Origin: an uncultured Candidatus Saccharibacteria bacterium
GTDB lineage: Bacteria; Patescibacteriota; Minisyncoccia; UBA6257; GWB1-50-10
Direction: 5' to 3'
Assembly (NCBI GenBank): GCA_964489845.1
Contig: CAZAZV010000002.1
Span: 770 to 64,769 of the forward strand
Length of the DNA stretch: 64,000 nucleotides
Position numbers and translations under genes: made by a program. This document shows, piece after piece, positions 22,860 to 64,000 of this stretch (the stretch's first letter is position 1; each line of letters opens with the position of its first letter). The notes below the pieces were generated by a model. That model searched no databases, was not told where the DNA came from, and saw only the letters and a program-made list of their open reading frames with translations.

Positions 22860-22930
22860 AATTTACAAGTTGAGTGTAACGAAACACAGTAAATTTGGCA
22901 AGATATTTGAGCACGCCGAGCTTGTCGAGG
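22860..22930 (-). promoter_or_regulatory. Diverged third copy of the promoter module (TTGCCA-17-TACACT) upstream of rpsK
   Basis: About 75% identical to the 19600/22320 repeats; same TACACT -10 element. Confidence 0.45.
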
Positions 22931-22978
22931 TGACGCTCCACCAAACCGCTCGTGTTGCACGCTCGCGGGGCGGGAGCG

Positions 22979-25356: not shown

Positions 25357-27075
25357 TTAGTATACCACACCGCGGATGCGGCGGACGCCGCGCGCGGCAG
25401 ACTCTTCCTTCGTGATTTTAAACGTCCCGATTTCCCCCGTACGCGTCACGTGCGGTCCTCCGCAGAACTCCTTGCTGTAGGCATCCGCAAGTGAGTTTCC
25501 TATGTAGTAGACGGAGACAACGTCGGGATACACGTCCCGCGTCGAGTGGAGCGCTCCTGTCTTTTCCGCCTCCGTCTTCGGCAACTCGATTTTTTGCACC
25601 GGTAAATCCTCGCGTATTTTCCCGTTCACCAATTCCTCCACGCGCGTTTTTTCTTCGTTCGTCAATTTCCGCTCGAAGCCGAAATCGAAGCGCGTCCGCT
25701 CCGGCGTGATGTCGGAACCCTCTTGCGGAATCTCCGCATGGAGCACGTCGCGGAGTGCCTGGTGGAGCAGGTGCGTCACGGTGTGCAAGCGAACGACTCG
25801 TTCCTCTTCCTCGCTCGTCCCCGCTTTCAATTCCCCGGTGTCAAGCGTGAGGCCGTGCCCGCCGAACTTCTTCCCCGCCCCCGCGCGGGAAATTTCCTGG
25901 TGCTTCTCGAATTCCTTGTCGAAATCCTCCCGATGCAGAGCACTCACTTTCGTGCCGCTGACGTCTTTCACGACCTCGTACGGAAGTCCGAAGGTTTGGT
26001 AGAGATAAAACGCGCGCGGCGCGTCGACGACAGCGAATTTTTCCAACTCTTTCAGCCCGCGCTCGAGCGCGGCCGAAAATTCCTCGCGCTCTTTCTCGAA
26101 AACATCGAGCACGAGTTTTTCGTCGAGTTCGCGATACGCCTCGCGGTATGACGCCACGACGGCGCGAAGCAACCGAGGCACATCGAGCCCTCTCCGCTCC
26201 CAAACAATGAGGCGGCGCAGGAGGCGGCGCAGAACGTATCCCGCTTCCTTATTCGACGGCAAGACACCGTCGGATATGAGGAACACAATCCCCCGTCCGT
26301 GGTCCGCGACAATGCGCTGCTCTTTCTCGGACAAGGAATCGGGGAGAAGCGCGATGAGCGGCTTGAAAAGGTCCGTTTCGAAAATCGTGGGGGTACTCTG
26401 CGAAACCATCGTGAGCCGCTCGAGTCCCATGCCGGTATCGACGCCGGATATCGCGAGCGGAGCGAGCCGCTTCTCCACATCGGCATAGAATTCGTTGAAC
26501 ACAATGTTCCACACCTCGAGTCCCCGCACGTACACCTCCGTCGTCGGCCCGCACGGCCCCTCGTTTCCCGTCGGTCCCCAGAATACGTCCGTGCCGTCGC
26601 CGCGGATATCCCGAACCCCGAGTGATTCCCAGATGACACGTGATTCGTCGTCACGAGGAACGTCCTTGCGCCAGTCGCCGTCCGGTACCTTGTCGGGGTC
26701 GAAAATTGTTACATAGTCAATGCTCAGTTTCATCACGTTTGTGATGAAATCGTATGCATATTCAATCGCTTCCTTTTTGAAATATCCGCCGAAGGAAAAG
26801 TTTCCGAGCATCTCAAAGAAGGTGAGGTGACTCTCGTCGCCCACCTCATCAATATCCGATGTGCGGAAACACTTCTGCACCGATGCGACGTTCCTGCTCC
26901 CGAAACGTTTTTTCGCACCGAGTTCTCCCGTGTAGTACCGCTTAAACTGCTGCATCCCCGCAGTAGTGAGGAGCACCGACGCATCGTTGGGTATGAGTGA
27001 CGAAGACGGAACTACGACGTGTCCCTTCTGCTCAAAATACTCGAGAAACTTTTTCCTAATCTCCGCGGACGTCAT
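25357..27075 (-). CDS. alaS: Alanyl-tRNA synthetase, short form (572 aa; catalytic and editing domains, no C-Ala domain)
   Basis: TTAGMQQFK...QKCFRTSDIDEVGDESHLTFFEMLGNFSFGGYFK; editing motifs THLLHQALRDVL and FCGGPH. True start at the internal MTSAEIRK, which shares 1 nt with the rpoD stop (TGATG). Confidence 0.85.
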   Translation of the reverse strand: MTSAEIRKKFLEYFEQKGHVVVPSSSLIPNDASVLLTTAGMQQFKRYYTGELGAKKRFGSRNVASVQKCFRTSDIDEVGDESHLTFFEMLGNFSFGGYFKKEAIEYAYDFITNVMKLSIDYVTIFDPDKVPDGDWRKDVPRDDESRVIWESLGVRDIRGDGTDVFWGPTGNEGPCGPTTEVYVRGLEVWNIVFNEFYADVEKRLAPLAISGVDTGMGLERLTMVSQSTPTIFETDLFKPLIALLPDSLSEKEQRIVADHGRGIVFLISDGVLPSNKEAGYVLRRLLRRLIVWERRGLDVPRLLRAVVASYREAYRELDEKLVLDVFEKEREEFSAALERGLKELEKFAVVDAPRAFYLYQTFGLPYEVVKDVSGTKVSALHREDFDKEFEKHQEISRAGAGKKFGGHGLTLDTGELKAGTSEEEERVVRLHTVTHLLHQALRDVLHAEIPQEGSDITPERTRFDFGFERKLTNEEKTRVEELVNGKIREDLPVQKIELPKTEAEKTGALHSTRDVYPDVVSVYYIGNSLADAYSKEFCGGPHVTRTGEIGTFKITKEESAARGVRRIRGVVY

Positions 27076-28250
27076 CAATATCCCTCCAGGTGCTTCACCT
27101 TCCGGTGCTTCCGAATCTGCTCGATCGCCTTCGCCTCGATCTGCCGTATCCGCTCGCGCGTCACGCCGAAGTCCTTGCCGACTTCTTCCAGGGTGTGCGT
27201 GATGTTGTCCTCGAGCCCGAAGCGCATGGAAAGAATTTTCTGTTCCCGCTCGGTGAGGTCGACGAGAATGTCCCTGATTTGCTCCTTCAAAAGGGCGTAG
27301 TTCGCCTGCTCGTCCGGCGGAATGCTCTGCTCGTCGGGCAAGAGGTCCGAGAGCGTGGAGTCCTCCTCGCTGTCGCCGATGGGCATTTCGAGCGACAACA
27401 CTTCCTGCGAAATTTTCTGGATATACCGCACCTTTTCCACCGGCACGCCCATCTCGACGGCGATTTCCTCGGGGAGCGGCTCGCGCCCCAACTCCTGCAT
27501 CAGCTGCCGCCGCTCCTGCGTATACTTTGTAATCGTCTCCACCATGTGCACGGGGATGCGGATCGTGCGCGAGTAGTCGGCCAAAGCGCGCGTCACCGCC
27601 TGGCGTATCCACCACGTCGCATAGGTCGAGAACTTGAATCCTTTGGTGTAGTCGAATTTCTCGACCGCCCGCGTGAGTCCGATGTTCCCTTCCTGGATAA
27701 GGTCGAGGATGCTCATGTACGGGCTCCGGTTCACGTACCGCTTCGCGATGGACACGACGAGACGCAGGTTCGCCTGCACGAGTTTCTTGCGGGCTTCTTC
27801 GTCGCCCTGCTCGATGCGCTTCGCGAGTTCCTTTTCCTCGCGCGACGTGAGGAGCGGCGTTTCCCCGATCTCTTTCAGGTACATCTGCACGACATCCGGC
27901 ATCCCCTCGCTCGCACGGGTCGCGGCTTTCAATTCCTGCTTGCTTACTTCTTCGCTGTCCGCGGTAACCAGCGGCAGCGCCTCGAGCACTTTCACGCCTT
28001 CCGCTTCCAGTTTCTCGTACACGCTCTCGATAAGGGGGATGTTGCGCTCAATGTACGGGAAGTAGCGGAGTATTTCCACGTCCGTCACGAAACCGCGCTG
28101 CTTCCCCCGTGCGACGAGTGTCGCAAGATTCTCGTCGCGGTCTTCCCCTTCCGGAACGGCAATGTGCTGCTGCGTCTCGTGGCGCTTGAGCCCCGATTCG
28201 CTCTGTGCGGAAAATCCGCACACGCTGCAGATAAATGTTTTCTTAGCCAT
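27075..28250 (-). CDS. rpoD: RNA polymerase sigma-70 factor with N-terminal C2H2-like zinc finger
   Basis: Regions 2 and 4 ([42 protein letters not shown]; [23 protein letters not shown]); N-terminus [24 protein letters not shown]. Confidence 0.88.
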
Positions 28251-31098
28251 TGGTGCGCAACGTATCCAGTTCCCCCGAGAGTTCCGAAAATTGCTTCAGC
28301 AGCCGCTCGCGCTCGGCTTCTCCGATGACGGAAGCGATACGCGATTTGATTTCTTTCTGCTTCACTTTGAGCATCTCGATCCGCAGCTGCCGCATAAGTT
28401 CTTTGAGTTCGTCTGCCAGTTCCTCATGCGGAACATTGTTGAACAAATAACTCGCCTCGAGTTCCAGGAGTCCCCCCTCGGCCGTTCTGCGCAGGAGTAT
28501 GTCCTGGTAATGCTCCGGCAAAAGGTCCTGCTCCGATTCCACTTCAGCATAAAACGAGTCATCGGAGAACGCAACGGTGAGGAGCCGCCGCGCGATGCGG
28601 TCTATGCGTTTCACTTCGGCTTCCTGCGGCGTCTCCGCTTCGACCGGCGCCGGTCCGCCGGCTTTTACGGTCGCGAACGCCTCGCGGAGCATCTGCTCCG
28701 AAATGCCCGCTGCGCGGGAGAGTTCCTTGAGCCACATATCCTGCTCCACGGCGCTCTCAAGGCGCGAGATGAGCCGCAGCATCGTCCCCACCATCCGCTT
28801 CCGCGCCGCGGGGTCGAGCGTGCCGCCGAAACGGACGGCGAAGAGCCGCTTGAACGCGGGTTCGGCTTGCGCGACACGTTTTGCGAACCCCTCCGCGTCT
28901 CTTTCCACAAACTCCGCCGGGTCTTTAAAGGTGCCGAGATCAACCGCCTTGACATAAAAATCGAACGTCCCGAGGAGCTCGAGGGAACGCTCGAGCGCCT
29001 CGATGCCCGCCTCGTCGCTGTCGAAACTCACGACCGCCGTGTCGGTGAGCCGCCGCAACGCGGTGAGATGCGCCGGCGTCAAACTCGTCCCGCACACCGC
29101 GACGGCATTCGTCACGCCCGCCTGGTGCGCCATGAGGGCATCCATATATCCCTCCATGACGAAAACGCTTTTCTGCTGCGCGATGTCCCGCTTCGCCTGC
29201 GAGAACCCGTAGAGGAGTTTCGATTTTTGGAAAATCGGCGTCTCGGGAGAATTCACGTACTTGGGGTTATTGTCGTCGTCCGCGAGCACGCGCCCCGCGA
29301 AACCGACGACCCTGCCGATATTGTTCCAGAGCGGGAACATCACGCGGTTCGCGAAAAAATCTTTGTAGAGTCCTCCTCGCTTCACGGCAAAGCCCGCTTG
29401 GACGAGTGTCTCGATGGAATGTCCTTTGTGGAGGAGGTACACGGTGAGCGCGTCACCACCGGGCGCATAGCCGAGCTCAAAGCGTTTCGCTGTCTCGCCG
29501 GTGAGGCCGCGTCCCTTCAGGTACGCGATCGTTTCCGCGTTCTCTTTTAGCTTGCTCCTGAAGAAGTCCCGCGCGAGCTCGTTCACTTCGTACAATTCGG
29601 CGAAGCGGTGCTCCATGCCGCCCCGGCCGCGCGAAAGTTCGATACCCGCCCGCTCGGCGAGAAGCTGGAGCGCCTCGGGAAACTCAATGCCCTCGTAGAG
29701 CATCACGAACTTGATGACGTCTCCCCCCTGTCCGCAATTCGCCACCGCAAAATGATTTGCTACGTATGAATGGTCTTCGTCGACAGTTAAGTTATAGACA
29801 GGACCGGTATACGGTTCTTTCCACACTTCCTTTACGGGAAGGAGCCAATAACGCCTTCCTTCGACCTCCTCGTATATGAAGCTATGCTGGGACTTCGCCT
29901 CCTCCGACCAGAGGATTCTGTAGACCTCGCGATGATTCACGCCTCGCGCATCGTGCCTTGTCCCCCGAACTCCGAAAGAAGGAAAGAGGTTGTTTCTTAA
30001 GAGTATGTCAATAACCTGCTCAGCAAGAATTCTCGAAATACTCGTGATGCTTTTATGCGTTTTTGTGGAACGACTGAATATACCGGTATGCCCATCGCCT
30101 CTGAAAATGGCATCGACCAGCACCTTCTGCTTTTCTGGAGGTAAAACTTGGAACACAAAGGGTATGTGTTTATACTCTGCTCCCTTGCCGCAAAGATTCT
30201 CAAAAATATTGGCGAGCTGTGCATGGCACGCGGTAATTTCGAGACCTGTTTTCTTTGTCTTGTTCGGATTTCTTTCATAAATCTTCGCTTCAAGTCCGAA
30301 AACGTTTTTCACGAGACGGACGATATCGTCGGCAAATTCCCGCTCATGATTCCCCAAACTGAATCGGATATACGCCCGATGACTGCTTCCCTCAGCTATC
30401 CAATAACCGAGAAGTCTCAGAAAGTCGTCATCAAGGGCAATGTTGAGTGAAATATCCCGCGAATGAGGACCAAACGTATATCCCTTGGTCAAATAGTCAT
30501 TGAGGTCGATGCGGGTCAGTTCGGCAACCGAGTTCTCAATCGGATAAAACACAAAATCGGCCGGTGCAATGCTGCCCGCATTGATTTCGATGATACTTCC
30601 GTGTTGCCGCGCCGCCTCGGAGAGCGTACGGGCCGTGCCCCGCGATACCGCATCGCGGCACAGACGATAAAACTGTTTGGTTTTCTTGCGGTAAGAAGTT
30701 GCGGGTCGCAGAACCTTCAGCTTATGGTCAGCGGTCATGGATACTGTCTCATTAAGTTTTCTCGTTCTCACATGAACTAAATCGCCCACATAATTTCTCA
30801 CATGAGTCGCGAGTACTCTCCGAACCTTCCCCGAACCGGAGTAGACGTAATGATTCTCGTCAATGTCTTCTATGTTATGGAGACCAAAGGGAGTTTTTAC
30901 CTTCTGACCCGGCGGGAAACACCCGAAGCAGTGCCACATCCGTCGCTCGGGAGACACCATGAAGGACGGAGTTTTCTCCTGATGGAAGGGGCAGAGCGCT
31001 TTGTAGTTCTTGCCCGCCGGCCTCAGGTCGATGTATCCCTTTAACACATCGAGAATGTCGGTGCGCTCTTTCACGCGCTCCACGTCAGTTGTTGCCAT
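28243..31098 (-). CDS. dnaG: DNA primase DnaG interrupted by a 395-aa LAGLIDADG intein in the zinc-binding domain
   Basis: Exteins: [24 protein letters not shown] | [12 protein letters not shown], then TOPRIM ([17 protein letters not shown]...SFDSDEAG). Confidence 0.85.
29737..30921 (-). mobile_element. Intein (Cys1 ... Asn395, with a Cys at the following extein position) with a LAGLIDADG homing-endonuclease domain, inserted in the DnaG zinc ribbon
   Basis: Starts CFPPGQKV (block A), TADH (block B), [11 protein letters not shown] and [12 protein letters not shown] (LAGLIDADG blocks), ends ...HFAVAN followed by an extein Cys. Removal restores the HCFGCGQGGD primase consensus. Confidence 0.75.
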
Positions 31099-52621: not shown

Positions 52622-53197
52622 ATGGGGAACATGCTTGAATACAACGAATTGAGGCCGGGCAAAACTTTCATATTGGACGGCGAACCGTATGTCGTACTCG
52701 ATTACAACTTCGTCAAGAAGCAGCAACGGCGGCCGACCGCCCAACTGACGTTAAAAAATCTTTTGAGCGGCAAAGTGCGGGAGTACGGCGCGCACCAGGG
52801 AAGCACATTCGAAGAAGCGGACATTGTGGGGAAAAACTCCCGCTTCATCTATTACAAGGAAAAGACCGGCGAATACTGGTTTTGCAGCGCGGACAACCCG
52901 AGCGACCGCTTTGCGTTGAAAGCGGAGGTTGTTGGCGACGCCCGGAACTATCTCAAGGAAAATCTGGAAGTGACTATCCTGTCCTTCAACGACCTGCCGA
53001 TATCGCTCCGCCTGCCGGCGAAAGTTGACCTCAAGGTGACCGATGCGCCGCCGAGCGTCAAAGGAGGTACGGTAAGCGGCGGCACGAAATCCGTCACAAC
53101 GGAAACGGGCTTGAAAGTGACGACACCGCTTTTCGTCAATGCGGGAGACGTCATTCGCGTGAACACCGCGAACAGTGAGTACACCGAGCGCGTTTAA
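52622..53197 (+). CDS. efp: Elongation factor P
   Basis: RPGKTFILDGEPYVVLDYNFVKKQQRRPTAQLTLKNLLSGK; 3 OB-like domains. Confidence 0.9.
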   Translation: MGNMLEYNELRPGKTFILDGEPYVVLDYNFVKKQQRRPTAQLTLKNLLSGKVREYGAHQGSTFEEADIVGKNSRFIYYKEKTGEYWFCSADNPSDRFALKAEVVGDARNYLKENLEVTILSFNDLPISLRLPAKVDLKVTDAPPSVKGGTVSGGTKSVTTETGLKVTTPLFVNAGDVIRVNTANSEYTERV

Positions 53198-54696
53198 TCT
53201 TTCTTCGCTTCTCCGTTTCCTCCAAGCGCCCGTTCGAGGATATCTTTCAATTCCTCAACATTAACGTCTCCGCGCGGCGGCTTCTCTCCGGCATGCGGAT
53301 GCAATGGCGCGGGACGCCCTTCGTCTTCCCGGTGAAGGACGGTTTTAAGTCGTTGCTCTCCCCGCTCGCTCACCCGCTCCACTGCCAGCCGCTCGTCCTG
53401 CCACTCCGCGCGCAATTTTTCTTCGACGTAACTCCGCGGCGAGCCGTAGCGCCGCTGCGAGTACTCGACGATGGTTTCCTTCTGCGAGTGTTCGGGAGGC
53501 GTGGGGGGCGGGAACGTCCGCGCCGAGAAGGGCTGCGAGGTGATGCCGTCTATCATCATCTTGATGATGACGTGGTGCTTCGCGAGATTCACGAGGTCCT
53601 GCGCGGTGTACTGCGGCCCGAATTCGGGCTCGAGAAATTCGGCATCCGCCGCGCCGATGCGGAAACAAACGAGTGTGCCGACGTTCCCAAAAATCGCGTC
53701 GCGCACGCGCGTGTTGCCGTTGTCATGCACAAGCTGGTTGATGTACTGGTGCGCCAAAACGAGATTCAGGCGGTACTTCCGCGCCTCGGAGAGGATGTTC
53801 GCGAACGAATCGGTCGCGAAGTTTTGGAACTCGTCGACGTAGAGCACGAAGTCCCGCAGTTCATGGAGCGGCATATCGCCGCGCGACATCGCCGCAAGTT
53901 GCAGTTTGGTAACAATGAGGGAACCAAGGAGCGCTGTGTTGTCCTCCCCAACCTGTCCCTTCGACAGATTGACGATAAGAATTTTCCCGCTGTCCATCAC
54001 CTCGCGCATGTCGATGGCAGAGCGGGGTTGTCCCAAAATATTCCGGAGCAACGGGTTCGTCACGAATTGCCCGACTTTGTTCTGTATCGCGGCAACCGCC
54101 TCAATCTGCAACCGCTGCGTGTATTGGGCGAATTCCTCTTTCCAGAAGTGCTTCACAACCGGGTCTTCGATGTGATTCACGATTTCGTCGCGGTACCGCC
54201 TATCGGAAAACATCCGCAGAATGCCGAGCACGGTCGACGATGGATTCTCGAGGAGCGCGAGGACAGTATTGCTCAAAATATATTCCATACGCGCGCTCCA
54301 CACGTCAGGCCAAATTTTCTTGAACACTCCCATCATACCCGATGCCAAGAGGTGCCGCCGCTCCACCGAAACCTCTTCGAAGGGGTTAAAGCCGATGGGG
54401 TGCTCGAGGTCGCCCGCGTCGAAATAGATAACGTCTTCCACCCGCTCCTCCGGCACGTAGTGCAAGATGTGCTCCGCGAGCTCCCCATGCGGGTCGACGA
54501 CGCCGATGCCCTTACCGCTCTGGATGTCGGACACGATCATATTCTCGAGGAGCGTCGATTTCCCCACGCCTGTTTTCCCGATGACGTAAACGTGCCGCCG
54601 CCGGTCGTCCGCCTTGATACCGAAGCGCCGTTCTTCTCCGCGATAGTCCGTAATGCCGATAGGGGTGATGAGAGGGGTAACGTTCGAGTAATCCAT
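53194..54696 (-). CDS. P-loop ATPase of the TraG/TraD/VirD4 (type IV secretion coupling protein-like, AAA_10) family
   Basis: Walker A VIGKTGVGKST; Walker B VLYVDEFQNF; about 500 aa soluble ATPase. Confidence 0.55.
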   Translation of the reverse strand: MDYSNVTPLITPIGITDYRGEERRFGIKADDRRRHVYVIGKTGVGKSTLLENMIVSDIQSGKGIGVVDPHGELAEHILHYVPEERVEDVIYFDAGDLEHPIGFNPFEEVSVERRHLLASGMMGVFKKIWPDVWSARMEYILSNTVLALLENPSSTVLGILRMFSDRRYRDEIVNHIEDPVVKHFWKEEFAQYTQRLQIEAVAAIQNKVGQFVTNPLLRNILGQPRSAIDMREVMDSGKILIVNLSKGQVGEDNTALLGSLIVTKLQLAAMSRGDMPLHELRDFVLYVDEFQNFATDSFANILSEARKYRLNLVLAHQYINQLVHDNGNTRVRDAIFGNVGTLVCFRIGAADAEFLEPEFGPQYTAQDLVNLAKHHVIIKMMIDGITSQPFSARTFPPPTPPEHSQKETIVEYSQRRYGSPRSYVEEKLRAEWQDERLAVERVSERGEQRLKTVLHREDEGRPAPLHPHAGEKPPRGDVNVEELKDILERALGGNGEAKKD

Positions 54697-54697
54697 G

Positions 54698-55999
54698 TTA
54701 GAAAGAGGGTAAATCGGCCGGCGGGCTGCTCTTGCGCGCCTCGATGCGCTGCAGCATCGGCGACTTGACGCCGGTAATCGGGAAGTGGAAGAGCGTCGCG
54801 AGTTCCTCCGCGTTGTAGATGTTGAATTTCCGCACGAAATCGCGGGCGCGGTAATGCGCGTAGAGTTTCCGCCGCTTCCGGTCCGTTTTGAGGTTCTTGA
54901 ATGGCTGCTTTGCGGTCGTCATGGTTTCCTTGTTCACGCCGAGCGCGTTGAGGTTCAAGGTACTGAACTGCCTGAACACACCCATGAGCGCGGTACTGTT
55001 CGAACCGGTAAACGCATCCTTCCGGTCAATATAGACGAAGCGGATGCCTCCTTCAAATCCTATCTTCGACATCTTGTGTTCCACCGCCTCGATGATGCGC
55101 TTGTTTCCCTCAGTGAGTCCTCCTTTTTCTTCTTTTTTCTCCTCTTTGCCTCCTCCCCATTCGGGCACCACGAACGGCGCCTTGAGAAGATTCTGGCCGA
55201 ACTCGCCGACGTTTTGCCCCTGTTTCCCCGCCCACTCGGAGAACTTCATTTTCTTCTCCGGTTTTTTCTTGCCGAGCACGATATCGATGACTTCCTGCGC
55301 TTTCTTCGTCCATTCGGTCCCCGTCGGCCGTATGAGAATTTGAATCCACGCGGCTTCCGAACGCTCGAGGCGGGACATAACCTCGGTAATGGCGCCGATG
55401 GGGTCGACGCGGCGCTCTTCCTCGCGCTCCTCGAACTCCGGGTATGTCCGCAGGGGGTATCCGTCCTCGCGCACGAGCGCAAGCTCGCTCCCGAAAAGTG
55501 TATATTCCTCGTTCGGCAAGTCAGCCGGGAATGAGCGGACATAGTCGTCCTCGTCCGGGACGAGCGATATTTCCACGTCGGGATAGTGCGCGTACACGAC
55601 CGATTCAATCATGTCGCGGTATCCTTCCGGTATCCGTATGTAAAAATGCACCGCGCCAGCGCGCCCCGCGACCTCGAAGCTCGCCCACTGTTCCACGACT
55701 CCCTTGAACCACTTCTTGTAAAATGAGACGCCGAACGAATACATCCCGTGCACCGTGGCGAAAACTTGCTCCATCGCCTTCGCGGTCTGGGGAACCTCGC
55801 GCGGCGCTGTGAGCTCCAAGAGCACCCATTTGATATCGTTCTTGAACCGCTCTTCTTTATAAAACAACCATGCTCTCGAGAACGCGAAAAAGAGAGCGAG
55901 AGGGATGACCACCCACCATATCAAAACAAAAACGCCCCAAAACGCATGGAAGCCAACCGTTAAGGCATCACGAACTGCTGTAAGAGCGGTCAATAACAT
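54698..55999 (-). CDS. Hypothetical membrane protein (N-terminal 2 TM plus large soluble domain) co-transcribed with the ATPase
   Basis: 1-nt intergenic gap before the ATPase gene; TM helices in the first 50 aa. Confidence 0.45.
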   Translation of the reverse strand: MLLTALTAVRDALTVGFHAFWGVFVLIWWVVIPLALFFAFSRAWLFYKEERFKNDIKWVLLELTAPREVPQTAKAMEQVFATVHGMYSFGVSFYKKWFKGVVEQWASFEVAGRAGAVHFYIRIPEGYRDMIESVVYAHYPDVEISLVPDEDDYVRSFPADLPNEEYTLFGSELALVREDGYPLRTYPEFEEREEERRVDPIGAITEVMSRLERSEAAWIQILIRPTGTEWTKKAQEVIDIVLGKKKPEKKMKFSEWAGKQGQNVGEFGQNLLKAPFVVPEWGGGKEEKKEEKGGLTEGNKRIIEAVEHKMSKIGFEGGIRFVYIDRKDAFTGSNSTALMGVFRQFSTLNLNALGVNKETMTTAKQPFKNLKTDRKRRKLYAHYRARDFVRKFNIYNAEELATLFHFPITGVKSPMLQRIEARKSSPPADLPSF

Positions 56000-56025
56000 T
56001 AGTAAAATTATAACACGTACGCAGA

Positions 56026-56240
56026 CCGCTATCCCCTGAAAAAGGACCCGCGCAGGGCGAGCTGGCAGAACTTGCCCGAACGAAGTGAGGTTACAAGTTC
56101 GCCATCCCGAGGAGCTCTGCCAGCAGGCGGAGCGAGGAGGGGCTACCTTCAGCGAGAGAGCGAGCCCGAGCGTGAACGCGTCCCGCTCGCGGGGCGGGAC
56201 GACGTGTTTCGCTTCAGGGGCGTAGCGGTCGGAGTAGGTC
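56026..56240. repeat. Family-2 structured repeat / candidate ncRNA (copy 2, about 215 nt)
   Basis: ccgctatcccctgaaaaaggacccgcg...gagcccgagcgtgaacgcgtcccgctcgcggggcgggacgacgtgtttcgcttcaggggcgtagcgg; homologous to 39541-39715 with a 40-nt insertion. Confidence 0.5.
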
Positions 56241-57286
56241 TACTTCAGCCGATATGCTCCCCCCGGCAGTCGCTCGAAATACTGCCGGTTCTGGAGGTTG
56301 AGCACGATGGTATTCTCCTTCGAAAACTTGCGCTTCTGAACGGCGTTTATCAGTTCCCGGGCGCTCATCGGCCCGTTTTCTCCCAAAATCCTCGCGATCA
56401 CTTCCCGTACCGTTCCTCCTTCGTACCCGTCTTCCTTCAACCCGTACGTTCCCCGGCCCACGAGCACGAACCGCTCGTCTTTGATGAGTTCGTTATGAAT
56501 GGTCTGAGGATGCACGCGCCGTTCGGCAAGTCCGACTTCCTGGATCATTTTCGCAATGTCTCTGAAGTGCAACGGCTTCCCGTGCTTCTTCAGTATCAGG
56601 TACGCGCGGTCGCGCGAGAATCGCGGCGTGATCTCGGGCCACTCCGCAAGTCCCACGTCTCCGAACACGTTCACGGTGACGCGGCGGGCGAGCGGCAGGA
56701 GCCGCCCCAGTTCCATGGCGTCGAACCACTCGAGATGCTTACGCTTCACAAGAATTCCTTCCGGTCCCGCTTGCTCGAATCTCTTGATGAGCTGCTTCAC
56801 GTCCCGCAGCACCCCGCTCTTCTGCCGCTCGTCGAGGTACCAAAACGCTTCCACGTCCCGATCGCCGGGAAAATAAAACGGCGCGCCGTTCGAAACTTCG
56901 AGGACGAAGTGCAGTTTGTTCGCGCACTGCTGCACCGAGTCGACAAGTCCTTTGCGCTCGAGGTCGGCGAGAAATTGCTCGCCGTGCGCGTAGCCGCCGC
57001 GTTCCTTCAGAATCACGTACGCGTCAGCGAGAAAATCCTGCAAAAGTCCCGCGAGAACATCTGCGAGCGCTTCCCGCGTTTTTTTCTCTATTTGCCGCAC
57101 CCGCTCGCGCGTCAGTTCAAGGTCGTCTCCGATTTCCTGGAGCGTCCGCCGCGTACCGCTTCGGTCGAGACCGAATCGTCCTCGTATGACTTCGCGCTGC
57201 TTCGGGGAAAAATCCGCAAGCGCGTCCCGCAATATGCCATCCAAATACGTCATAGGAAATCTAACAATAACACACAAGTTATCCAC
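56240..57286 (-). CDS. Sigma-70 region-4 HTH domain protein with large unknown C-terminal domain
   Basis: FSPKQREVIRGRFGL...TLQEIGDDLELTRERVRQIEKKTREAL. Confidence 0.5.
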   Translation of the reverse strand: MDNLCVIVRFPMTYLDGILRDALADFSPKQREVIRGRFGLDRSGTRRTLQEIGDDLELTRERVRQIEKKTREALADVLAGLLQDFLADAYVILKERGGYAHGEQFLADLERKGLVDSVQQCANKLHFVLEVSNGAPFYFPGDRDVEAFWYLDERQKSGVLRDVKQLIKRFEQAGPEGILVKRKHLEWFDAMELGRLLPLARRVTVNVFGDVGLAEWPEITPRFSRDRAYLILKKHGKPLHFRDIAKMIQEVGLAERRVHPQTIHNELIKDERFVLVGRGTYGLKEDGYEGGTVREVIARILGENGPMSARELINAVQKRKFSKENTIVLNLQNRQYFERLPGGAYRLK

Positions 57287-57289: not shown

Positions 57290-58195
57290 TCAATCCCCCT
57301 TGTTTCTGCCCTGCCACAGGTACAGGAGCGGGCTCGCCACGAAGATGGATGAATACGTTCCCGCGACGGTCCCGATGAGTACGGTAAGGAGGAACCCCAT
57401 GAGTGACGAGGGGCCGAAAAGGAGGAGCGCAATGAGCACGACGATGAGCGTGCCGGATGTATTCATGGACCGCATGAGGGTCTGATTCACGCTGTCGTTC
57501 ACAATGTCTCCGAGCGGGATCCGTTCGTTCTTCCGCTCGAGGAGGTGTTCGCGGATGCGGTCGAAGACCACAATCGTGTCGTGCACCGAGAAACCAACCG
57601 TCATCAGCAAGCCGACAAGTATCGTCGTGTCCACGTCGAAGAGACCGAAATGTCCGAAGAGTGCCACCGCGCCAAGCGGGATGCTCACGTCGTGAAACAG
57701 CGCGATGAGCGTCGAGAAGCCGTACTTCCACGAGGAAACCCTCGCCGCCGCCTTGCGGAACGCCCACCCGACAAAGAAGGTAATCGCCGCAATCGCGCCG
57801 ATGAGCGCCCAGAGCGACTGGCGCCACAATGCTTTGCTCACCGTCGGCCCGATACTCGAGAATCCGAGCGTCTGGAACGTTCCAAACGCCTTCGTGAGCG
57901 CCTGCTCGTACGCCGTCTTATCCGACGGCATCATCTGTTTCACCCGTATGACGATGCCCTCCCCCACCCGCTCGGTCGCCACATCGGCATGAAACGTTTT
58001 TTCGACGAACGCCCTCACCTGCTCCGGAGAAACGGTTGTCGAGGAAGCAAACTGCACGCTCCACGACGTGCCACCGGACAAATCCGCACCCGGCTGCAAA
58101 CCGAACACGAACACGCACACCCACGCCGCGAAAACGAGCGCGAGCGCGACACCCAGGAAAACGTTTCTGTGTTTTATGACGTCAAGCTTATGCAT
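57290..58195 (-). CDS. secF: Protein-export membrane protein SecF
   Basis: 301 aa, 6 TM, follows secD. Confidence 0.85.
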   Translation of the reverse strand: MHKLDVIKHRNVFLGVALALVFAAWVCVFVFGLQPGADLSGGTSWSVQFASSTTVSPEQVRAFVEKTFHADVATERVGEGIVIRVKQMMPSDKTAYEQALTKAFGTFQTLGFSSIGPTVSKALWRQSLWALIGAIAAITFFVGWAFRKAAARVSSWKYGFSTLIALFHDVSIPLGAVALFGHFGLFDVDTTILVGLLMTVGFSVHDTIVVFDRIREHLLERKNERIPLGDIVNDSVNQTLMRSMNTSGTLIVVLIALLLFGPSSLMGFLLTVLIGTVAGTYSSIFVASPLLYLWQGRNKGD

Positions 58196-59456
58196 GGTTT
58201 GATTCCGATTCAGTGCCGGCAGTCCGCGGCGCCTTGCTCGCGCGGAGTATCGTCCTCGTGAACACGACAGCCGTCAGCATGCTTGTCGCGACACCAATGA
58301 AGAGCGCGAGCGCGAACCCGCGGACGAAACTCGTCGTAATGTAGAAAAGAATCACGGCGGAGATCATCGTCGCGATATTCGAATCGCGTATGGAACTCCA
58401 CGCGCGCTTGAAACCGTTCTCCACCGCCTGCGCGTACGGTATTCCCTGCCGCAGTTCTTCTTTCATTCGCTCGAAGACGAGCACGTTCGCATCGACCGCC
58501 ATGCCGAGCGACAGCACGATACCGGCGATGCTCGAGAGCGAGAGTGTCACGGGAACCAGCTTGAAAATCGTAAGGTTCAGGAGCGCATAGACGATGAGCG
58601 CGATGACGGAATAAATTCCCAGGCGGCGGTAGTACAGGAGCATGTAGAGCGCGACGAACGCGAACCCGACGACACCCGCGACGAGCGCCTCATGGAACGA
58701 TTTTGCTCCGAGGAGCGGGCTCACGGTTTCTTGGTCGACGAGCTGTATCGGGGCCGGAAGCGCGCCGGCATTGAACCGCGCGGCGAGCTGCTGCGCCGCT
58801 TCGACGGTGAAGTTGCCCGAAATCTGGGCCTTGCCTCCGGTAATTTCTTCTCGCACCGTCGGCTCCTCGAGCAGCTTGTTGTCCAAAAAGACCGCAATCG
58901 GCTTGCCGATGTTCTGCCGCGTCAGGTCGGCGAAGAGTTTCGCGCCGTTTTGCGTCAGTTCGAAATTGACGACGGGCGCGCTCGTGTATTGGTCGAAGGA
59001 AACGCTCGCGCCGGTCACGTCGCTCCCCGTAAGCCCTGTCGGGGTGTACGTCTCCGTCCCGTCTTTTGCGACCGTCACGGTGCGGAAATCCAGGGTCGGC
59101 GTCGTGCCGATTTCCGCAATGGCTTCGTCGAGGTTCTTGATGCCCGCGAGTTCAACGACCAGCCGTTCCTCGCTCCCTACTCTCTTGATGTATACCTGCG
59201 GCTCGCTCACGCCGAACAGGTCGACGCGTTTCTCGATGACGTCGCGCAAGCCGGAGAGCACACTCGACTCGTCGGAAGCGGGAACTTTACTCATATCGAT
59301 GCTGTACTCGAGATGGCTGCCGCCCGCCACATCAAGTCCTAGCCGCCACGGCCTGAAATCGGAAAGCTGGCTCCAGACCGGTTGGTACACGAAGAGCGCT
59401 CCGAACAGCGCGATGACGGTGAAAATGATGAGAATGGAAGAGTTCCGCTGCGTCAT
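58188..59456 (-). CDS. secD: Protein-export membrane protein SecD
   Basis: 422 aa; periplasmic domain plus C-terminal 6 TM; LGLDVAGGSHL. Confidence 0.88.
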   Translation of the reverse strand: MTQRNSSILIIFTVIALFGALFVYQPVWSQLSDFRPWRLGLDVAGGSHLEYSIDMSKVPASDESSVLSGLRDVIEKRVDLFGVSEPQVYIKRVGSEERLVVELAGIKNLDEAIAEIGTTPTLDFRTVTVAKDGTETYTPTGLTGSDVTGASVSFDQYTSAPVVNFELTQNGAKLFADLTRQNIGKPIAVFLDNKLLEEPTVREEITGGKAQISGNFTVEAAQQLAARFNAGALPAPIQLVDQETVSPLLGAKSFHEALVAGVVGFAFVALYMLLYYRRLGIYSVIALIVYALLNLTIFKLVPVTLSLSSIAGIVLSLGMAVDANVLVFERMKEELRQGIPYAQAVENGFKRAWSSIRDSNIATMISAVILFYITTSFVRGFALALFIGVATSMLTAVVFTRTILRASKAPRTAGTESESNHA

Positions 59457-59474: not shown

Positions 59475-60698
59475 CTACTCCAAACTTCTCCTTCCCCGCA
59501 ACTCCCGGTGGTACGTGATGGCGAAGCGGTGCGCCTCGTCCCGCACGCGGATGAGCGTCTCCTCCGAGGTGCCGCGCGGCACGCGGCCGATAAACTCGTT
59601 CTTCTTCCGCTTCGGCCCTTTCGCAATACCGACGACCGGCACGGAAATATCGTGTTTCGCAAGCACTTCCTGCACCGCATGAACCTGCGCCACACCGCCA
59701 TCGACGAGGACAGTGTCCGGCAGCGGCCAGTTGTCCTGTGGCGGAATGTGCCGCAGGCGCCGCGCGAGCACTTCCTTCAGCATGCCGACATCGCCACCCG
59801 CTTCGGTCCGGAAAGCGCGGATGCGGAATTTGCGGTACTCGCTCCGCGAGGGTTTGCCGTTCCTGAACACGACCATCACGCCAACCGCCGACGTGCCCGA
59901 TATATTCGAGATGTCGTACCCCTCTATCCGTTCCGTTTGTTCCTCTCGCGCCGCATCTCTGCTGATGAGCGCGATATCGTTCACGTGTGTGAGGGCGAAA
60001 AGCTGCCGCTTCGCGCGCTCCGCCGCTTCGTATTCCTGCCGCTTCGCGTACGTTTTCATATCCCGCTCAAGCCGCCGGACGAGCGCCTGCCGTTCGCCTT
60101 TCAAAACCTGTTTCAGTCCACGAAGGTCGCGCCGGTACTTTTCCTTTTCGAAATTCCCCGTGCACGTCCCCGGGCAAAGACCGAGTTCCGCATCGAGGCA
60201 CGGCCGCTTGAACGTACCGATGTCGTGCGGGTTGTGCGTGCTGAACGGGAAAATCTTCCGAAGGAGCTTCAGCGCGACCGTAATCTGCGAACTTTGCACG
60301 AAGGGACCGAAGGCGCGCGCTTTTTCCTGCTCCGTGAGTTCCTTTCCGCGCATAAGTTTCACCTGGGGTGCCGCGCCGCGCGTCACAACGACATAGAGAA
60401 AACTCTTATCGTCTTTCTCCTTGACGTTGTACGGCGGGTAGTACCGCTTGATGAGCTGCGACTCGAGCATGAGTGCTTCGAGCGCGGTGTCGGTCTCCTT
60501 CGTCTCGATACCGTCTATCAAGTTCACCATGCGCTCAATGCGGCTGTCGTGGGGACGCTCGAAATAGCTTCGCACGCGGCGCGACAAATTCCCCGCCTTT
60601 CCGACGTACAGAATCTTCCCCCGCTTGTCCTTCATCAAGTACACGCCCGGCGTCTGCGGAATTTTCTCCAGTATCTTTTTGGTAGTATCTTGGATCAT
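59475..60698 (-). CDS. uvrC: Excinuclease ABC subunit C, short form (GIY-YIG plus RNase H-like, no C-terminal HhH)
   Basis: GVYLMKDKRGKILYVGKAGNLSRRVRSYF GIY-YIG; UvrBC motif region. Confidence 0.75.
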   Translation of the reverse strand: MIQDTTKKILEKIPQTPGVYLMKDKRGKILYVGKAGNLSRRVRSYFERPHDSRIERMVNLIDGIETKETDTALEALMLESQLIKRYYPPYNVKEKDDKSFLYVVVTRGAAPQVKLMRGKELTEQEKARAFGPFVQSSQITVALKLLRKIFPFSTHNPHDIGTFKRPCLDAELGLCPGTCTGNFEKEKYRRDLRGLKQVLKGERQALVRRLERDMKTYAKRQEYEAAERAKRQLFALTHVNDIALISRDAAREEQTERIEGYDISNISGTSAVGVMVVFRNGKPSRSEYRKFRIRAFRTEAGGDVGMLKEVLARRLRHIPPQDNWPLPDTVLVDGGVAQVHAVQEVLAKHDISVPVVGIAKGPKRKKNEFIGRVPRGTSEETLIRVRDEAHRFAITYHRELRGRRSLE

Positions 60699-60705
60699 TT
60701 ATTCA

Positions 60706-61029
60706 CTACCTCACTTCCGACCCGGGCATAACTTTCTTGTCGGGCGTGAGAAGCGCCAAACTGCCCCCATCATCGCTCGCGGCAAGGAGCATCCCCTGGC
60801 TCTCGAACCCCATGAGCGTCCGCGGCGCGAGGTTTACGACAACAACAATCTGCCGCCCGACGAGTTCATCGGCCTCGTAATACTTCGCGATACCGGCGAC
60901 GATTTGACGTTCCTCCGTCCCGATATCAACGCGCAGTTTCATAAGCTTCTCCGAGTCCTCAACCCGCTCCGCGGCGAGAACCTTCCCGACCCGCAATTCA
61001 ACGTTTTTAAAATCTTCAAAAGATATCAT
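60706..61029 (-). CDS. tRNA-binding domain protein (CsaA/Myf-like OB fold)
   Basis: LRVGKVLAAERVEDSEKLMKLRVDIGTEERQIVAGIAKYY...QIVVVVNLAPRTLMGFESQGMLLAA. Confidence 0.75.
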   Translation of the reverse strand: MISFEDFKNVELRVGKVLAAERVEDSEKLMKLRVDIGTEERQIVAGIAKYYEADELVGRQIVVVVNLAPRTLMGFESQGMLLAASDDGGSLALLTPDKKVMPGSEVR

Positions 61030-61056
61030 GGAATTATTTTATCATCACTTGATTAC

Positions 61057-61397
61057 CTATTGCAGCCGGCTCCCGAGCCCCACATCCGGCTTGCCGGGCG
61101 TGATAAGGACCCACCCGCCGCCTTTCATGTTCCTAAATCCGAGCGTCAGAACCTCGGAAGAAAAGGACGCGATGCGCTTCAGCGGGAAATTCACGACGCA
61201 GACGACAAGCATACTAGACAGTTCTTCTTTGGTATGCGCCCCGACGGCCCGCACGCTTGACGTTTTTACACCGAGCTCCGGCCCGAAATCTATCTTCAGC
61301 TTGAACGCCGGCATCCGCGCTTCGGGAAACTCATTGACCTCAACGACTTTCCCGACACGAATATCAATTTTTCAAAATCTTCGTATGCAACGGTCAT
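61057..61397 (-). pseudogene. Tandem paralogue of the tRNA-binding protein, disrupted by a -1 frameshift in an A5 run
   Basis: Frame 1 gives MTVAYEDFEK; after gaaaaattg the alternative frame gives IDIRVGKVVEVNEFPEARMPAFKLKIDFG... A 6th A would restore EKIDIRVGK. Confidence 0.55.
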
Positions 61398-61580
61398 GAG
61401 ATCCCCTTCGGCCGCTCTTTTCAGTTTTTCCTCATCGAATTTCACAGCTCCGCGTTTCGCAAAGTGATCATCTCCATCTTATTTTTATCATATAAGGTTA
61501 TATGATAGTATTTTGGCTTCCTGTAATTTCGGGAGGGTCGAGAACTACAAAAATTAAAGCATGGTGGCTGTCTTCTCGCT

Positions 61581-61628
61581 GCTCAATATCTTTAGAACGA
61601 GATGTTCTCTGAATTTCACCATTTTCAT
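61581..61628 (-). repeat. 48-nt exact direct repeat = duplicated 5' end (MKMVKFREHLVLKILS) of the ASCH gene at 62656-62859
   Basis: Identical to 62812-62859; minus strand reads ATGAAAATGGTGAAATTCAGAGAACATCTCGTTCTAAAGATATTGAGC, then a stop after 6 more codons. Confidence 0.75.
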
Positions 61629-62165
61629 ACCGGTTTCGATACAAGTTTCAGGTACACCTCGCGCAAGAGTTTAGTATCATCCAGCGCGTGATGCTCCCGA
61701 TATTTCGTGTGGTCAATCCCCAACTCGTGGTAAAAATTGTTTTTGTCGCCATGGTAATAACTCTCCGGACTCACGCCAAAACCGAAAAGGATTGACGCGA
61801 AATCAATCGGTATCCAGTGAAACGGTGCCACCAGTCCCGCATAATTTATAGAGATAGAGCGCATCAAATTGATTCACGTACGCGACCATAAAGGGTTCAC
61901 CATCTCCCACGAACTTTTTTATTCTCTTCGCCGCCTCTTCTCTCCCGATTTTCTCTTCCGTAAGGAATGGGACAACGTGCTCCTGTACCCATTTGTCCAC
62001 AGCACCATCCCATTCCAGTTCGACGTATAATTCCTCGCCATTCAGTTTCACGAGTCCTACGGAAAGCAACTCTCCTTTATAAGGGTCTAAGCTCGTAAAT
62101 TCGGTATCGACGAATACGATATTATCTGAAAAAGGCGTGAATGGTTTCATAATTTCTTCGGCCAT
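61625..62165 (-). pseudogene. DEDDh (DnaQ-like) 3'-5' exonuclease split by a frameshift near 61850
   Basis: Exo I VFVDTEFTSLDP and Exo II-like AYVNQFDALYL in one frame; Exo III HHALDDTKLLREVY in the overlapping frame (ORFs 61803-62165 and 61625-61867). Confidence 0.55.
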
Positions 62166-62701
62166 ATTGCCAGAAAGTAAGCACTCGAATCGGGTACGTT
62201 ATTGAACCACGCGAATCGCAAATGTTCTGCTCCTATCGTATGGCTCTTTCCGTCTTCCGGATCATTATATCGAAAAGCATCTTTCTCACCCCGGTAGCCA
62301 GTAATAACAATAAAATGACCGGCCTTCGTCAGAGGTAAGCGATGAAGCAGTGAGTAACGGATGTTTACGATAACCGGCACCCCCCGCTTTAGAAAAGTTA
62401 TGATATCCTTCGTATCCGGCAGTTTCAGCTTCGCGCCCCCATCAGCGAGTTTCCTATTGTACGAGAAACAGGAAATGTTAAACCCGAGTTTCCCAGCAAA
62501 GTCTGCGAGTTTCGTTGTTTTCACGCCGTAACTTTTCAGACCACCAACTTCCCGTATTATTTCTTTCTCGGGTATATCCCGTCCCCAGAAAGATAACACC
62601 ATCCTCAAAGAGGTTGTTCCACATGTATTTTTGCGCTGTTTGAATTTCGGTACGTTTATAAACATCTCCTGATTTTCGAAACACTTCTTACCGTAATCCA
62701 T
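62147..62701 (-). CDS. Papain-like (C39-like) cysteine peptidase
   Basis: QRKNTCGTTSLRMVLSFWG catalytic Cys context; downstream His in GHFIVITGY. Confidence 0.5.
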   Translation of the reverse strand: MDYGKKCFENQEMFINVPKFKQRKNTCGTTSLRMVLSFWGRDIPEKEIIREVGGLKSYGVKTTKLADFAGKLGFNISCFSYNRKLADGGAKLKLPDTKDIITFLKRGVPVIVNIRYSLLHRLPLTKAGHFIVITGYRGEKDAFRYNDPEDGKSHTIGAEHLRFAWFNNVPDSSAYFLAIWPKKL

Positions 62702-62859
62702 GCGGACATCGCGCCGAATGTTTCTCCCGTGTTCCAGTTCACAAGCTCAATGCGGTCCCCTTCCTGCAAATCCTTGTCGTCGAAAAGCCGCCACGTAACC
62801 GTCTTCTCGCCGCTCAATATCTTTAGAACGAGATGTTCTCTGAATTTCACCATTTTCAT
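62656..62859 (-). CDS. Mini ASCH-domain protein (67 aa)
   Basis: EHLVLKILSGEKTVTWR...FGAMSAWITVRSVSKI; paralogous to 63296-63727. Confidence 0.5.
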   Translation of the reverse strand: MKMVKFREHLVLKILSGEKTVTWRLFDDKDLQEGDRIELVNWNTGETFGAMSAWITVRSVSKIRRCL

Positions 62860-63299
62860 ACTCTCCTAAACTCATAATACATCCTAATGCATTCATCTTC
62901 GTCTCGAACAAGCTCCATCATCAACGCTTCTTCCGGTGAAACCCACCGGTGTTCCCGTAACTCGTCGGCTTTCAGTACAATCTCCGGCAAAATATTAAAT
63001 TCTATTCGAAACATATGAAATATGAAGTGATGTTCCGGCCACACCACATATACTTTCGTTAAATATTGCAGCGCCGCCTGCGATACATCCTGTCCGATTT
63101 CTTCCCTGATTTCTCTTGCCATCGCCTCCGATACATCCTCGCCAGCATCTACCTTACCAGCCAGAACACCCCACTTGTCTCCTTCTGGTTTATGCTTAAG
63201 ACGACGTAAAAGCAAGATCTTACCATCATGCTCTATGAAACAACTCACCACTTCGGGTATTGTCGGGTTAAATTCTTGTGGAATCTCTTTATATATCAT
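62856..63299 (-). CDS. NUDIX hydrolase
   Basis: GVLAGKVDAGEDVSEAMAREIREEIGQDV Nudix box. Confidence 0.8.
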   Translation of the reverse strand: MIYKEIPQEFNPTIPEVVSCFIEHDGKILLLRRLKHKPEGDKWGVLAGKVDAGEDVSEAMAREIREEIGQDVSQAALQYLTKVYVVWPEHHFIFHMFRIEFNILPEIVLKADELREHRWVSPEEALMMELVRDEDECIRMYYEFRRV

Positions 63300-63727
63300 C
63301 GCTGTATCTTTGAAATATCATCCACGGTAATCCACGCAGACATCATGCCAAATCCGGTCTTGTCGATTTCGAATGGCTCGATTTCCCGCGGGCTCTTGAG
63401 GAAGATAAACATACCATACTGCTTATCCCTGAATCGTTCAAAGAAGGCGGGTACGTCGGCTTCCTCAAGCCCGTCATCCTTGTAGTACCTATCGAGCAAT
63501 TCCCTGACTCGTTTCGACGTCAAATCGGCGAATTGCACTACCTTCTCAACTTCCGCTCTCACGCTCACCGGCTCGCCGGAGTTCTTGAAGTAAACGGTTT
63601 CCCCGGGCTTTACGGCATCCCACGGCTTACACTTCGTCACGGACCAGCGCGATTCAATCGTCTTCCGCCCGTCTAAGATTTTCGGCAAGAGTCCCCACGA
63701 TTTGCGCATAATTGCCACGTGTTCCAT
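63296..63727 (-). CDS. ASCH-domain protein
   Basis: LPKILDGRKTIESRW...FGMMSAWITVDDISKIQR. Confidence 0.6.
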   Translation of the reverse strand: MEHVAIMRKSWGLLPKILDGRKTIESRWSVTKCKPWDAVKPGETVYFKNSGEPVSVRAEVEKVVQFADLTSKRVRELLDRYYKDDGLEEADVPAFFERFRDKQYGMFIFLKSPREIEPFEIDKTGFGMMSAWITVDDISKIQR

Positions 63728-63730
63728 ATC

Positions 63731-64000
63731 TCACTTCAAAACTTTCTTCAGATATTTCCCCGTTTCGCTGCCGGCAACCTGGGAGACCTCTTCCGGCGTA
63801 CCTTCGGCGACGACGTGGCCGCCTTTCACGCCCCCGCCGGGGCCGAGGTCGATAATCCAGTCAGCCGACTTTATCACGTCCAGATTGTGCTCGATGACGA
63901 GGATGGTATTCCCCCGCTCCACGAGTTTCTGCAGTACGTCGAGAAGTTTCTGCACGTCGTCAAAGTGGAGTCCGGTTGTCGGTTCGTCGAGCAAATAGAG
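63731..64000 (-). CDS. uvrA: Excinuclease ABC subunit A, C-terminal fragment (gene continues beyond the window end)
   Basis: [54 protein letters not shown]. Confidence 0.85.

Follow-up and report, generated by a model that had tools for sequence, protein, structure and literature searches.

A VirB4/VirD4-class ATPase and its DUF8128 partner form a conserved chromosomal gene pair in Parcubacteria-type Patescibacteria

Type IV coupling proteins (T4CPs) that have no transmembrane domain (TMD) and rely on a separate membrane protein, as in the TraJ/TraI couple of pIP501, are a recognised class (PMC7431656). In the phages 0305phi8-36 and SPO1, genes for a relaxase, a coupling ATPase, a VirB6-like protein and an MreB-like protein make up a 'DNA translocation operon' (Pathria et al. 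2012, PMC3357382), which is dispensable in the laboratory. The N-terminal domain of the coupling ATPase in these phages lacks a transmembrane (TM) segment, and its nature was left unexplained. A subsequent survey of Patescibacteria (Quinonero-Coronel et al. 2025, PMC12102498) reported 5,713 VirD4-like T4CP homologues in 2,918 of 3,035 genomes, with only 148 of the homologues near virB4, and VirB4 in 2,417 genomes. Here we describe a gene pair in a 64,000-nucleotide stretch of contig CAZAZV010000002.1, from an uncultured Candidatus Saccharibacteria bacterium (the window, i.e., the whole stretch analysed), which encodes a 433-aa protein of the family DUF8128 (PF26449) and a 500-aa soluble P-loop ATPase. 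It is a conserved chromosomal gene pair of Parcubacteria-type Patescibacteria and not part of a conjugation element, and the evidence supports well a split, membrane-anchored motor ATPase of the VirB4/VirD4 class.

Both open reading frames (ORFs) are present on the minus strand where an earlier interpretation made from the DNA alone (the sequence-only reading) had placed them, the DUF8128 gene at 54698..55999 and the ATPase gene, downstream of it, at 53194..54696. The DUF8128 stop codon TAA is separated by 1 base from the ATPase ATG (tttcTAAcATGgat in the window sequence); the genes adjoin without overlap, and translational coupling is plausible. For comparison we took the best 80 DUF8128 loci, drawn from at least 588 GTDB species genomes. 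In 68 of the 72 loci with room for it, the ATPase gene lies directly downstream of DUF8128, at a median gap of 31.5 nt, a pairing far beyond chance.

The ATPase shows, in translation, the two Walker motifs and the soluble character that had been predicted for it. The Walker A sequence GKTGVGKS (residues 40-47, 54556..54579, minus strand) and the Walker B region LYVDEFQNF (residues 285-293, 53818..53844, minus strand) contain residues that are invariant in 51 homologues, namely G40, K41, T42, G43, G45 and K46 in the former and D288, E289, F290, Q291, N292 and F293 in the latter, and the protein has no hydrophobic segment, with no hydrophobic window above 1.6. Between the two motifs of this nucleotide-binding domain lies an all-helical insertion (residues 111-235, 53992..54366, minus strand), which in the model appears to correspond to the all-alpha domain of coupling proteins; a conserved tail forms the C-terminus, where helices at residues 406-433 and 480-491 are conserved.

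TrwB_AAD_bind and DUF87, two Pfam profiles that the sequence-only reading had singled out, both score above their gathering thresholds on this protein (39.2 bits vs. 20.5 for the former), as do T4SS-DNA_transf (32.8 vs. 20.1) and TraG-D_C (30.1 vs. 22). FtsK_SpoIIIE remains below threshold (17.7 vs. 24 bits), and CagE_TrbE_VirB does not match the ATPase. The curated NCBIfam cut-offs for T4CPs are all missed: the best model, conju_CD1115, a VirD4-like family, reaches 52.4 bits vs. 250, followed by SXT_TraD (51.1 vs. 366) and TraD_Ftype (19.1 vs. 521), while the VirB4 model TIGR00929 (VirB4_CagE) gives 22.7 bits vs. a cut-off of 643. Thus, the proposed coupling-protein kind holds at the level of Pfam and not at that of NCBIfam, and of the proposed FtsK/HerA-like kind the superfamily, FtsK-HerA, is borne out but FtsK_SpoIIIE itself is not. 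NCBI annotates the ATPase as a 'type IV secretory system conjugative DNA transfer family protein'.

Structural comparison of the ATPase gave scores of 26.9 for the DndH C-domain, 26.5 for TrwB, 23.3 for DotL, 22.8 for HerA, 21.9 for Cag-beta and 17.9 for FtsK, vs. about 11-13 for RecA, RAD51 and KaiC. The C-terminal domain (CTD) of VirB4 outscores HerA, FtsK and the defence relatives, and HerA and FtsK also fall below TrwB. The best-scoring models are therefore not KaiC or RecA, an outcome that would have refuted the type IV secretion system (T4SS) assignment of the sequence-only reading. The protein qualifies as a C-terminal ATPase domain of the RecA-like VirB4 type, and within the FtsK-HerA superfamily it falls in the VirB4/VirD4 branch. 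Judged by modelled structure alone, the VirB4 CTD and VirD4 are not told apart here, whereas by sequence the models of the VirD4 type fit the ATPase better than those of the VirB4 type.

For the partner protein, PF26449 is assigned in precomputed annotation to the identical NCBI protein and to the other 119 listed homologues. The sequence-only reading had given this protein several N-terminal TM helices, of which one is found: a hydrophobic membrane segment at residues 18-47 (HAFWGVFVLIWWVVIPLALFFAFSRAWLFY, 55859..55948, minus strand), with Kyte-Doolittle 19-residue windows up to 2.5. This stretch of about 30 residues is modelled within a single long helix (residues 2-55), and its WW..P..L pattern is kept in 52 homologues. 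Because a K/R-rich sequence follows the helix, the positive-inside rule suggests that the large remaining domain is cytoplasmic, and its predicted fold resembles that of the VirB4 N-terminal domain (NTD). Near the C-terminus lies the invariant motif EELATLFHFP (54779..54808, minus strand; E398, E399, A401, T402, H405 and P407 invariant in 52 sequences), followed by a conserved tail K-G-x-PP-x-x-LP (54701-54778, minus strand; P427 and P431 invariant in the same number of sequences). The EELATxxHFP motif and the PPxxLP tail may together serve as the docking region for the ATPase.

The relationship between the two proteins is seen most directly in phages, the only relatives in which DUF8128 and the ATPase are fused. 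In the phage family phrog_5156 (824 positions), positions 49-309 match DUF8128 (1.7e-11) and positions 388-804 match the ATPase (3.1e-64). Likewise, hhalign aligns the DUF8128 profile with residues 31-319 of Bacillus phage G gp156 (825 aa) at 98.2% probability, and the ATPase profile with residues 376-749 at 99.9% (E 4e-33), with a domain order in gp156 that equals the gene order in the window. The EELATLFHFP motif of DUF8128 aligns with 'nvqEmsqfiHlP' at gp156 residues of about 300-315, directly before the ATPase half, and the split between the two window genes falls at the gp156 linker. A 906-aa protein of the SPO1-like phage SP8 shows the same two-half match, although its DUF8128 half is weaker (81%). 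Identity to the phage homologues is only about 23-28%, and the hydrophobic segment of gp156 is internal, near residue 183, instead of N-terminal. When the first 370 residues of gp156 served as the query of a word-index search, no match was returned.

Thus, DUF8128 and the ATPase reproduce the NTD-CTD layout of VirB4, with a membrane helix of their own where VirB3 serves VirB4. This provides the first structural hypothesis for DUF8128 and for the N-terminal domain of the phage 'coupling ATPase', which is well supported for phage G gp156 and weaker for SP8. The pair could be a living intermediate of the transition from VirB4 to T4CPs.

The genes around the phage fusions are T4SS-like. In the phage G locus (L006, 774-6338) the fusion protein gp156 stands with the TrbL_4/VirB6-like gp153 and the VirB4-like gp155 (P-loop_TraG/AAA_10), and in SP8 a Replic_Relax protein follows the 906-aa protein. 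These fusions in Bacillus phages, together with the NCBI annotation of the ATPase, could suggest that the window pair is the remnant of an integrated conjugative element or prophage, in which a hypothetical gene hitch-hikes with a decaying T4CP gene. However, neither ORF is disrupted, the catalytic and motif residues are invariant, the GC content of the pair equals that of its surroundings, no integrase, relaxase or repeat-bounded island accompanies it, and its position and neighbours are constant across many Patescibacteria lineages. Synteny and conservation therefore effectively refute a remnant, to which we give almost no credence. Among the IMG/VR viral contigs, a single partial DUF8128 match was found, which likewise speaks against a remnant; an origin of DUF8128 from phages of the candidate phyla radiation is not supported by it.

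The wider distribution of the pair is chromosomal. DUF8128 forms 3,700 clusters (50% identity, E <= 1e-3) among 1.8 billion representatives, and the best 80 loci are nearly all Patescibacteria-type (Jorgensen-, Lipton-, Yanofsky-, Wolfe-, Colwell-, Moran-, Uhr-, Magasanik-, Nealson- and Wildermuthbacteria and others), apart from a few titled only 'bacterium' and one labelled Binatia. Generic 'uncultured Saccharibacteria' labels of metagenome-assembled genomes are not reliable as class assignments. The window itself is core chromosome, with ribosomal proteins and a SecY/Adk/Map block, EF-Tu, RpoA, RpoD, DnaG and AlaRS, as well as EF-G, AspRS, MetRS, Ndk, MnmA, EF-P, SecDF, UvrC and GH130. In 70 of 75 loci, the gene immediately preceding DUF8128, at a median gap of 55 nt, encodes a protein with a sigma-70 region 4 and a HARE-HTH domain (sigma4/HARE-HTH). 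Upstream of that gene, tblastn places SecD and SecF (in the window at 58188-59456 and 57290-58195, both on the minus strand) in most of the 80 loci, an identity that also follows from Pfam families in the related loci, and EF-P often follows. The same position and neighbours recur in Jorgensen-, Harrison-, Yanofsky-, Wolfe-, Colwell-, Moran-, Uhr- and Magasanikbacteria. The pair and the sigma4/HARE-HTH gene are a vertically inherited core chromosomal operon and not an island, and the adjacency to SecDF could simply reflect how slowly small genomes rearrange.

Compared with the window, the median identity is 58% for the ATPase, 47% for SecD, 46% for EF-P, 39% for SecF, 37% for DUF8128 and 36% for the sigma4/HARE-HTH protein, and the ATPase ranks first in conservation in 37 of the 38 loci that have all five syntenic genes. 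This pattern bears on another explanation, in which the ATPase would serve anti-phage defence in the manner of HerA, DndH or MADS and DUF8128 would act as sensor or anchor. A PADLOC mad8 match to the ATPase (6.9e-21), the similarity to DndH and HerA, and restriction-modification and OLD-like genes a few genes downstream of the pair in one locus are in line with such a role. However, a near-universal, vertical, single-locus distribution at 58% identity is unlike that of patchy defence islands, the neighbours are housekeeping genes, and no nuclease, Sir2, methylase or other mad or dnd partner is conserved beside the pair. In addition, DUF8128 has no PADLOC match, and the sigma4/HARE-HTH protein has only a weak MzaA match over its sigma4 helix. 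A defence function is thus very improbable.

Several individual loci depart from the common arrangement. One Uhrbacteria locus (L077) carries tandem ATPase paralogues after DUF8128, at 6331-7572 and 8364-9617, which are 56% and 40% identical to the window ATPase. In three loci (L027, L079 and L086), DUF8128 is present with no ATPase in the about 1.8-3.9 kb of sequence downstream. An apparent fusion of the HARE-HTH gene with DUF8128 in L038 was rejected, since the two genes are separate there, with 9 nt between them. In a Jorgensenbacteria genome (L001), which is the closest relative that has a name, a ComEC-type competence gene (PF03772) lies at 9890-11245, two genes downstream of the ATPase; a ComEC-type gene was not found near the pair in the window.

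How might the pair work? DUF8128 would be anchored in the cytoplasmic membrane by its single N-terminal helix and would expose a cytoplasmic domain of about 380 residues with a VirB4-NTD fold, whose invariant C-terminal motif and tail would recruit the soluble ATPase. The ATPase, consisting of a nucleotide-binding domain and a helical insertion as in VirD4/TrwB coupling proteins and the VirB4 CTD, would thereby rebuild with DUF8128 the NTD-CTD layout that is a single chain in VirB4 and in phage G gp156 (less clearly in SP8). By analogy with TrwB, VirB4 and HerA, we expect the ATPase to form a hexameric ring at the membrane, which would spend ATP on driving a polymer, most probably DNA, towards a conduit in the membrane whose genes lie elsewhere. 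A minimal DNA uptake or export apparatus, as suggested in the sequence-only reading, would need a channel component; none is present, so the two proteins cannot be such an apparatus by themselves.

The role we prefer is that of the 'missing' coupling ATPase, or second ATPase, of the Patescibacterial T4SS-like apparatus, which is encoded elsewhere, in many classes near dnaA/dnaN, and mostly without a linked coupling protein. Three considerations favour such a role: the phage relatives have T4SS-like neighbours, T4SS clusters occur without a linked T4CP, and the NTD could make VirB4-like contacts. For the reading as a whole, i.e., a two-chain motor that would translocate a polymer, most likely DNA, and whose preferred role is linked to a T4SS, we estimate a probability of roughly 55%; the assignment to the Patescibacterial T4SS-like apparatus, taken by itself, is tentative and falls somewhat short of even odds.

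A number of observations weigh against this reading. No VirB4, VirB6 or relaxase, and no VirB3 or VirB8, was found by a Pfam scan of the ~30 larger ORFs of the window, of about 200 aa and more. The claim that the window holds no other T4SS or conjugation genes stands within this scope. With T4SS, relaxase and channel genes thus missing from the scanned ORFs, the flank in related loci consists of SecDF, the sigma4/HARE-HTH gene and EF-P. The DUF8128 profile gave an hhalign probability below 1% against pGO1 TrsD and TrsE and against phage G gp155, and did not match PDB sequences, so that its relationship to the VirB4 NTD appears, from the models, to be structural only. An ATPase conserved above SecD, SecF and EF-P is unusual for coupling proteins. 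According to PMC12102498, T4CP homologues are found in 2,918 genomes vs. 2,417 with VirB4, so that the ATPase seemingly occurs in many genomes that lack a T4SS; and in Southlakia, as stated there, the T4CP homologue, which may or may not be of the DUF8128-paired family, is dispensable whereas the T4SS is essential.

These same points suggest a different function, in which the two-chain motor, alone or with partners outside any T4SS, would be a housekeeping translocase and a core function of Parcubacteria. Its task might be competence-linked DNA import or export, FtsK-like handling of the chromosome at division, or protein extraction or secretion near SecDF. The occurrence of T4CP homologues in 96% of genomes vs. 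80% for VirB4 agrees with this, as do the first rank of the ATPase in conservation, the stable synteny with SecD-SecF and the sigma4/HARE-HTH gene with no T4SS genes nearby, and the ComEC-type gene two genes away in Jorgensenbacteria. The authors of PMC12102498 themselves raised exaptation, which in their words 'cannot be ruled out'. However, no conduit or substrate-recognition partner has been identified for such a translocase, the phage relatives sit with VirB4-, VirB6- and relaxase-like genes, the FtsK_SpoIIIE score (17.7 vs. 24 bits) argues against an FtsK, and the proximity to SecDF may be no more than synteny. Saccharibacteria have FtsK according to the literature. We therefore regard a T4SS-independent housekeeping translocase as possible but doubtful. 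A more specific form, namely a widespread T4SS-independent machine of Parcubacteria, possibly with the sigma4/HARE-HTH protein as its DNA-binding adaptor, in which a split VirB4-VirD4 hybrid moves nucleic acid across or at the membrane, e.g., for scavenging or exchange with a host or for chromosome handling, seems unlikely.

The possible adaptor is encoded at 56240..57286 (minus strand) and is 348 aa long (330-360 aa in related loci). It combines a sigma-70 region 4 (residues 22-74, Pfam Sigma70_r4, 1.5e-13) with a HARE-HTH domain (residues 227-284, 5e-14), and its profile matches region 4 structures of sigma A/RpoD in the PDB at about 1e-19. Lacking sigma regions 2 and 3, the protein cannot act as a sigma factor; it is probably a DNA-binding regulator or adaptor, which might compete for the beta-flap or bind DNA. 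The sequence at 57086-57145, within the sigma4 domain, is 72% identical over 60 nt to that at 27135-27194, within region 4 of the RpoD gene (27075-28250), a similarity at the nucleotide level that suggests that the domain derives from the primary sigma factor. A relaxase function, for which the Replic_Relax neighbour in phage might be a precedent, was rejected on an hhalign probability of 0.1% and on the domains found, which are sigma region 4 and HARE-HTH.

Between this gene and DUF8128 lies the 'family-2' structured repeat that the sequence-only reading had noted upstream of the pair, and which is real. It is a GC-rich element of about 210 nt at 56023..56231 with terminal inverted repeats (GACCGCTACGCCCCTGAA ... 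TTCAGGGGATAGCGGTC) and a predicted RNA fold of -106 kcal/mol (z = -4.4). A second, shorter copy lies at 39546-39687; both are intergenic, and the longer one, at 56 kb, has an internal segment of about 68 nt that the other lacks. The gap between the sigma4/HARE-HTH gene and DUF8128 is 240 nt in the window vs. a median of 55 nt elsewhere, and because the latter is too short to hold the repeat, the element is not a conserved part of the module; it looks like a lineage-specific insertion resembling a miniature inverted-repeat transposable element. A conserved regulatory RNA was rejected on the second copy, on this gap and on the Rfam scan of the window, which returned one tRNA only and no match for the repeat. 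A TATAAT-like box lies between the repeat and the DUF8128 ATG.

Elsewhere in the window, the 951-aa DnaG primase (28243-31098, minus strand) carries an intein with a LAGLIDADG homing-endonuclease domain between its zinc ribbon and its catalytic core, as given by Pfam matches to Intein_splicing and LAGLIDADG_3. A 69-nt repeat ending in a GC hairpin (19600-19668, 22322-22390 and 22863-22931; two copies identical, the third 72%) flanks the RpoA/S4 region and probably represents a further small repeat family. Just above the tRNA-Gly(CCC) gene (46082-46153, minus strand), on the plus-strand side, a 43-nt sequence is present in two exact copies with a spacing of 60 nt (46161-46263). The GC content is lower (0.48-0.53 vs. 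about 0.58-0.60) at 60000-64000, where a 61-nt repeat (98%) occurs at 61570 and 62801, and at 12000-18000, which encodes a 911-aa beta-helix protein and a dockerin-domain protein. Both stretches may be variable surface-protein regions.

The pair matters in view of the bacteria that carry it: Patescibacteria account for a large part of bacterial diversity and spend their lives attached to other cells, and their T4SS-like apparatus, to which no coupling protein has been assigned, proved essential in the only species tested. Their abundant 'orphan T4CP' genes have been unexplained, and in the Parcubacteria-type genomes sampled here this ATPase family comes with a fixed partner, which yields a testable unit of two or three genes with a predicted interface and a fused phage counterpart, and which bears on how VirB4 and VirD4 diverged. 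The ATPase family as such is already known, with annotations and counts in the literature, and its partner is registered as a DUF, although neither DUF8128 nor PF26449 is named in the papers searched. New are the obligate pairing of DUF8128 with the ATPase, the split-versus-fused relationship and the three-gene core operon with its unusual conservation, to which we add the predicted VirB4-NTD-like fold of DUF8128 and hence, by the fusion, of the gp156 N-terminal domain (less securely that of SP8). The sections of PMC12102498 cited here place TrsD, which has remote homology to the VirB4 N-terminus, next to virB4, and report no DUF8128 partner, VirB4-NTD-like fold, synteny with sigma4/HARE-HTH and SecDF or phage fusions. 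The pair is not a new class of machine; that it is a central, so far unrecognised housekeeping machine of these bacteria is a real but unproven chance.

Finally, we note how the pair compares with its known relatives. First, VirB4, as in TrwK of R388 or the CTD of Thermoanaerobacter pseudethanolicus (PDB 4ag5), is one chain, whereas the window version is split at the NTD/CTD boundary, has its own TM helix and is not clustered with VirB3, VirB6 or VirB8; its DUF8128 half has no sequence similarity to TrsD, TrsE or gp155. Second, HerA, FtsK and the defence relatives HerA-NurA, DndH/DptH and MADS mad8 differ in their partners, since the nuclease, Sir2 and Dnd proteins are missing beside the window pair. 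Third, VirD4/TraG/TrwB coupling proteins carry the TMD in the same chain, whereas the window ATPase has none and the only TM segment lies in the separate DUF8128 protein; the TMD-less TraJ of pIP501 works with the membrane protein TraI, but the partner here is a 433-aa protein predicted to be VirB4-NTD-like and not a small T4SS subunit. In contrast to T4CPs, the window ATPase has no relaxase or T4SS genes nearby and is chromosomal, widespread and unusually conserved. Fourth, the phage coupling ATPases (0305phi8-36 orf201, SPO1 gp27.4 and phage G gp156; phrog_5156) are homologous over both halves, yet each is one chain of 825-906 aa that lacks a TM helix at its N-terminus, and they adjoin relaxase-, VirB6- and VirB4-like genes, whereas the window version is split, membrane-anchored and chromosomal. 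Fifth, the orphan T4CP homologues of Patescibacteria described in PMC12102498 are very probably the same ATPase population as that of the window ATPase, whose relatives bear NCBI names of the same kind.

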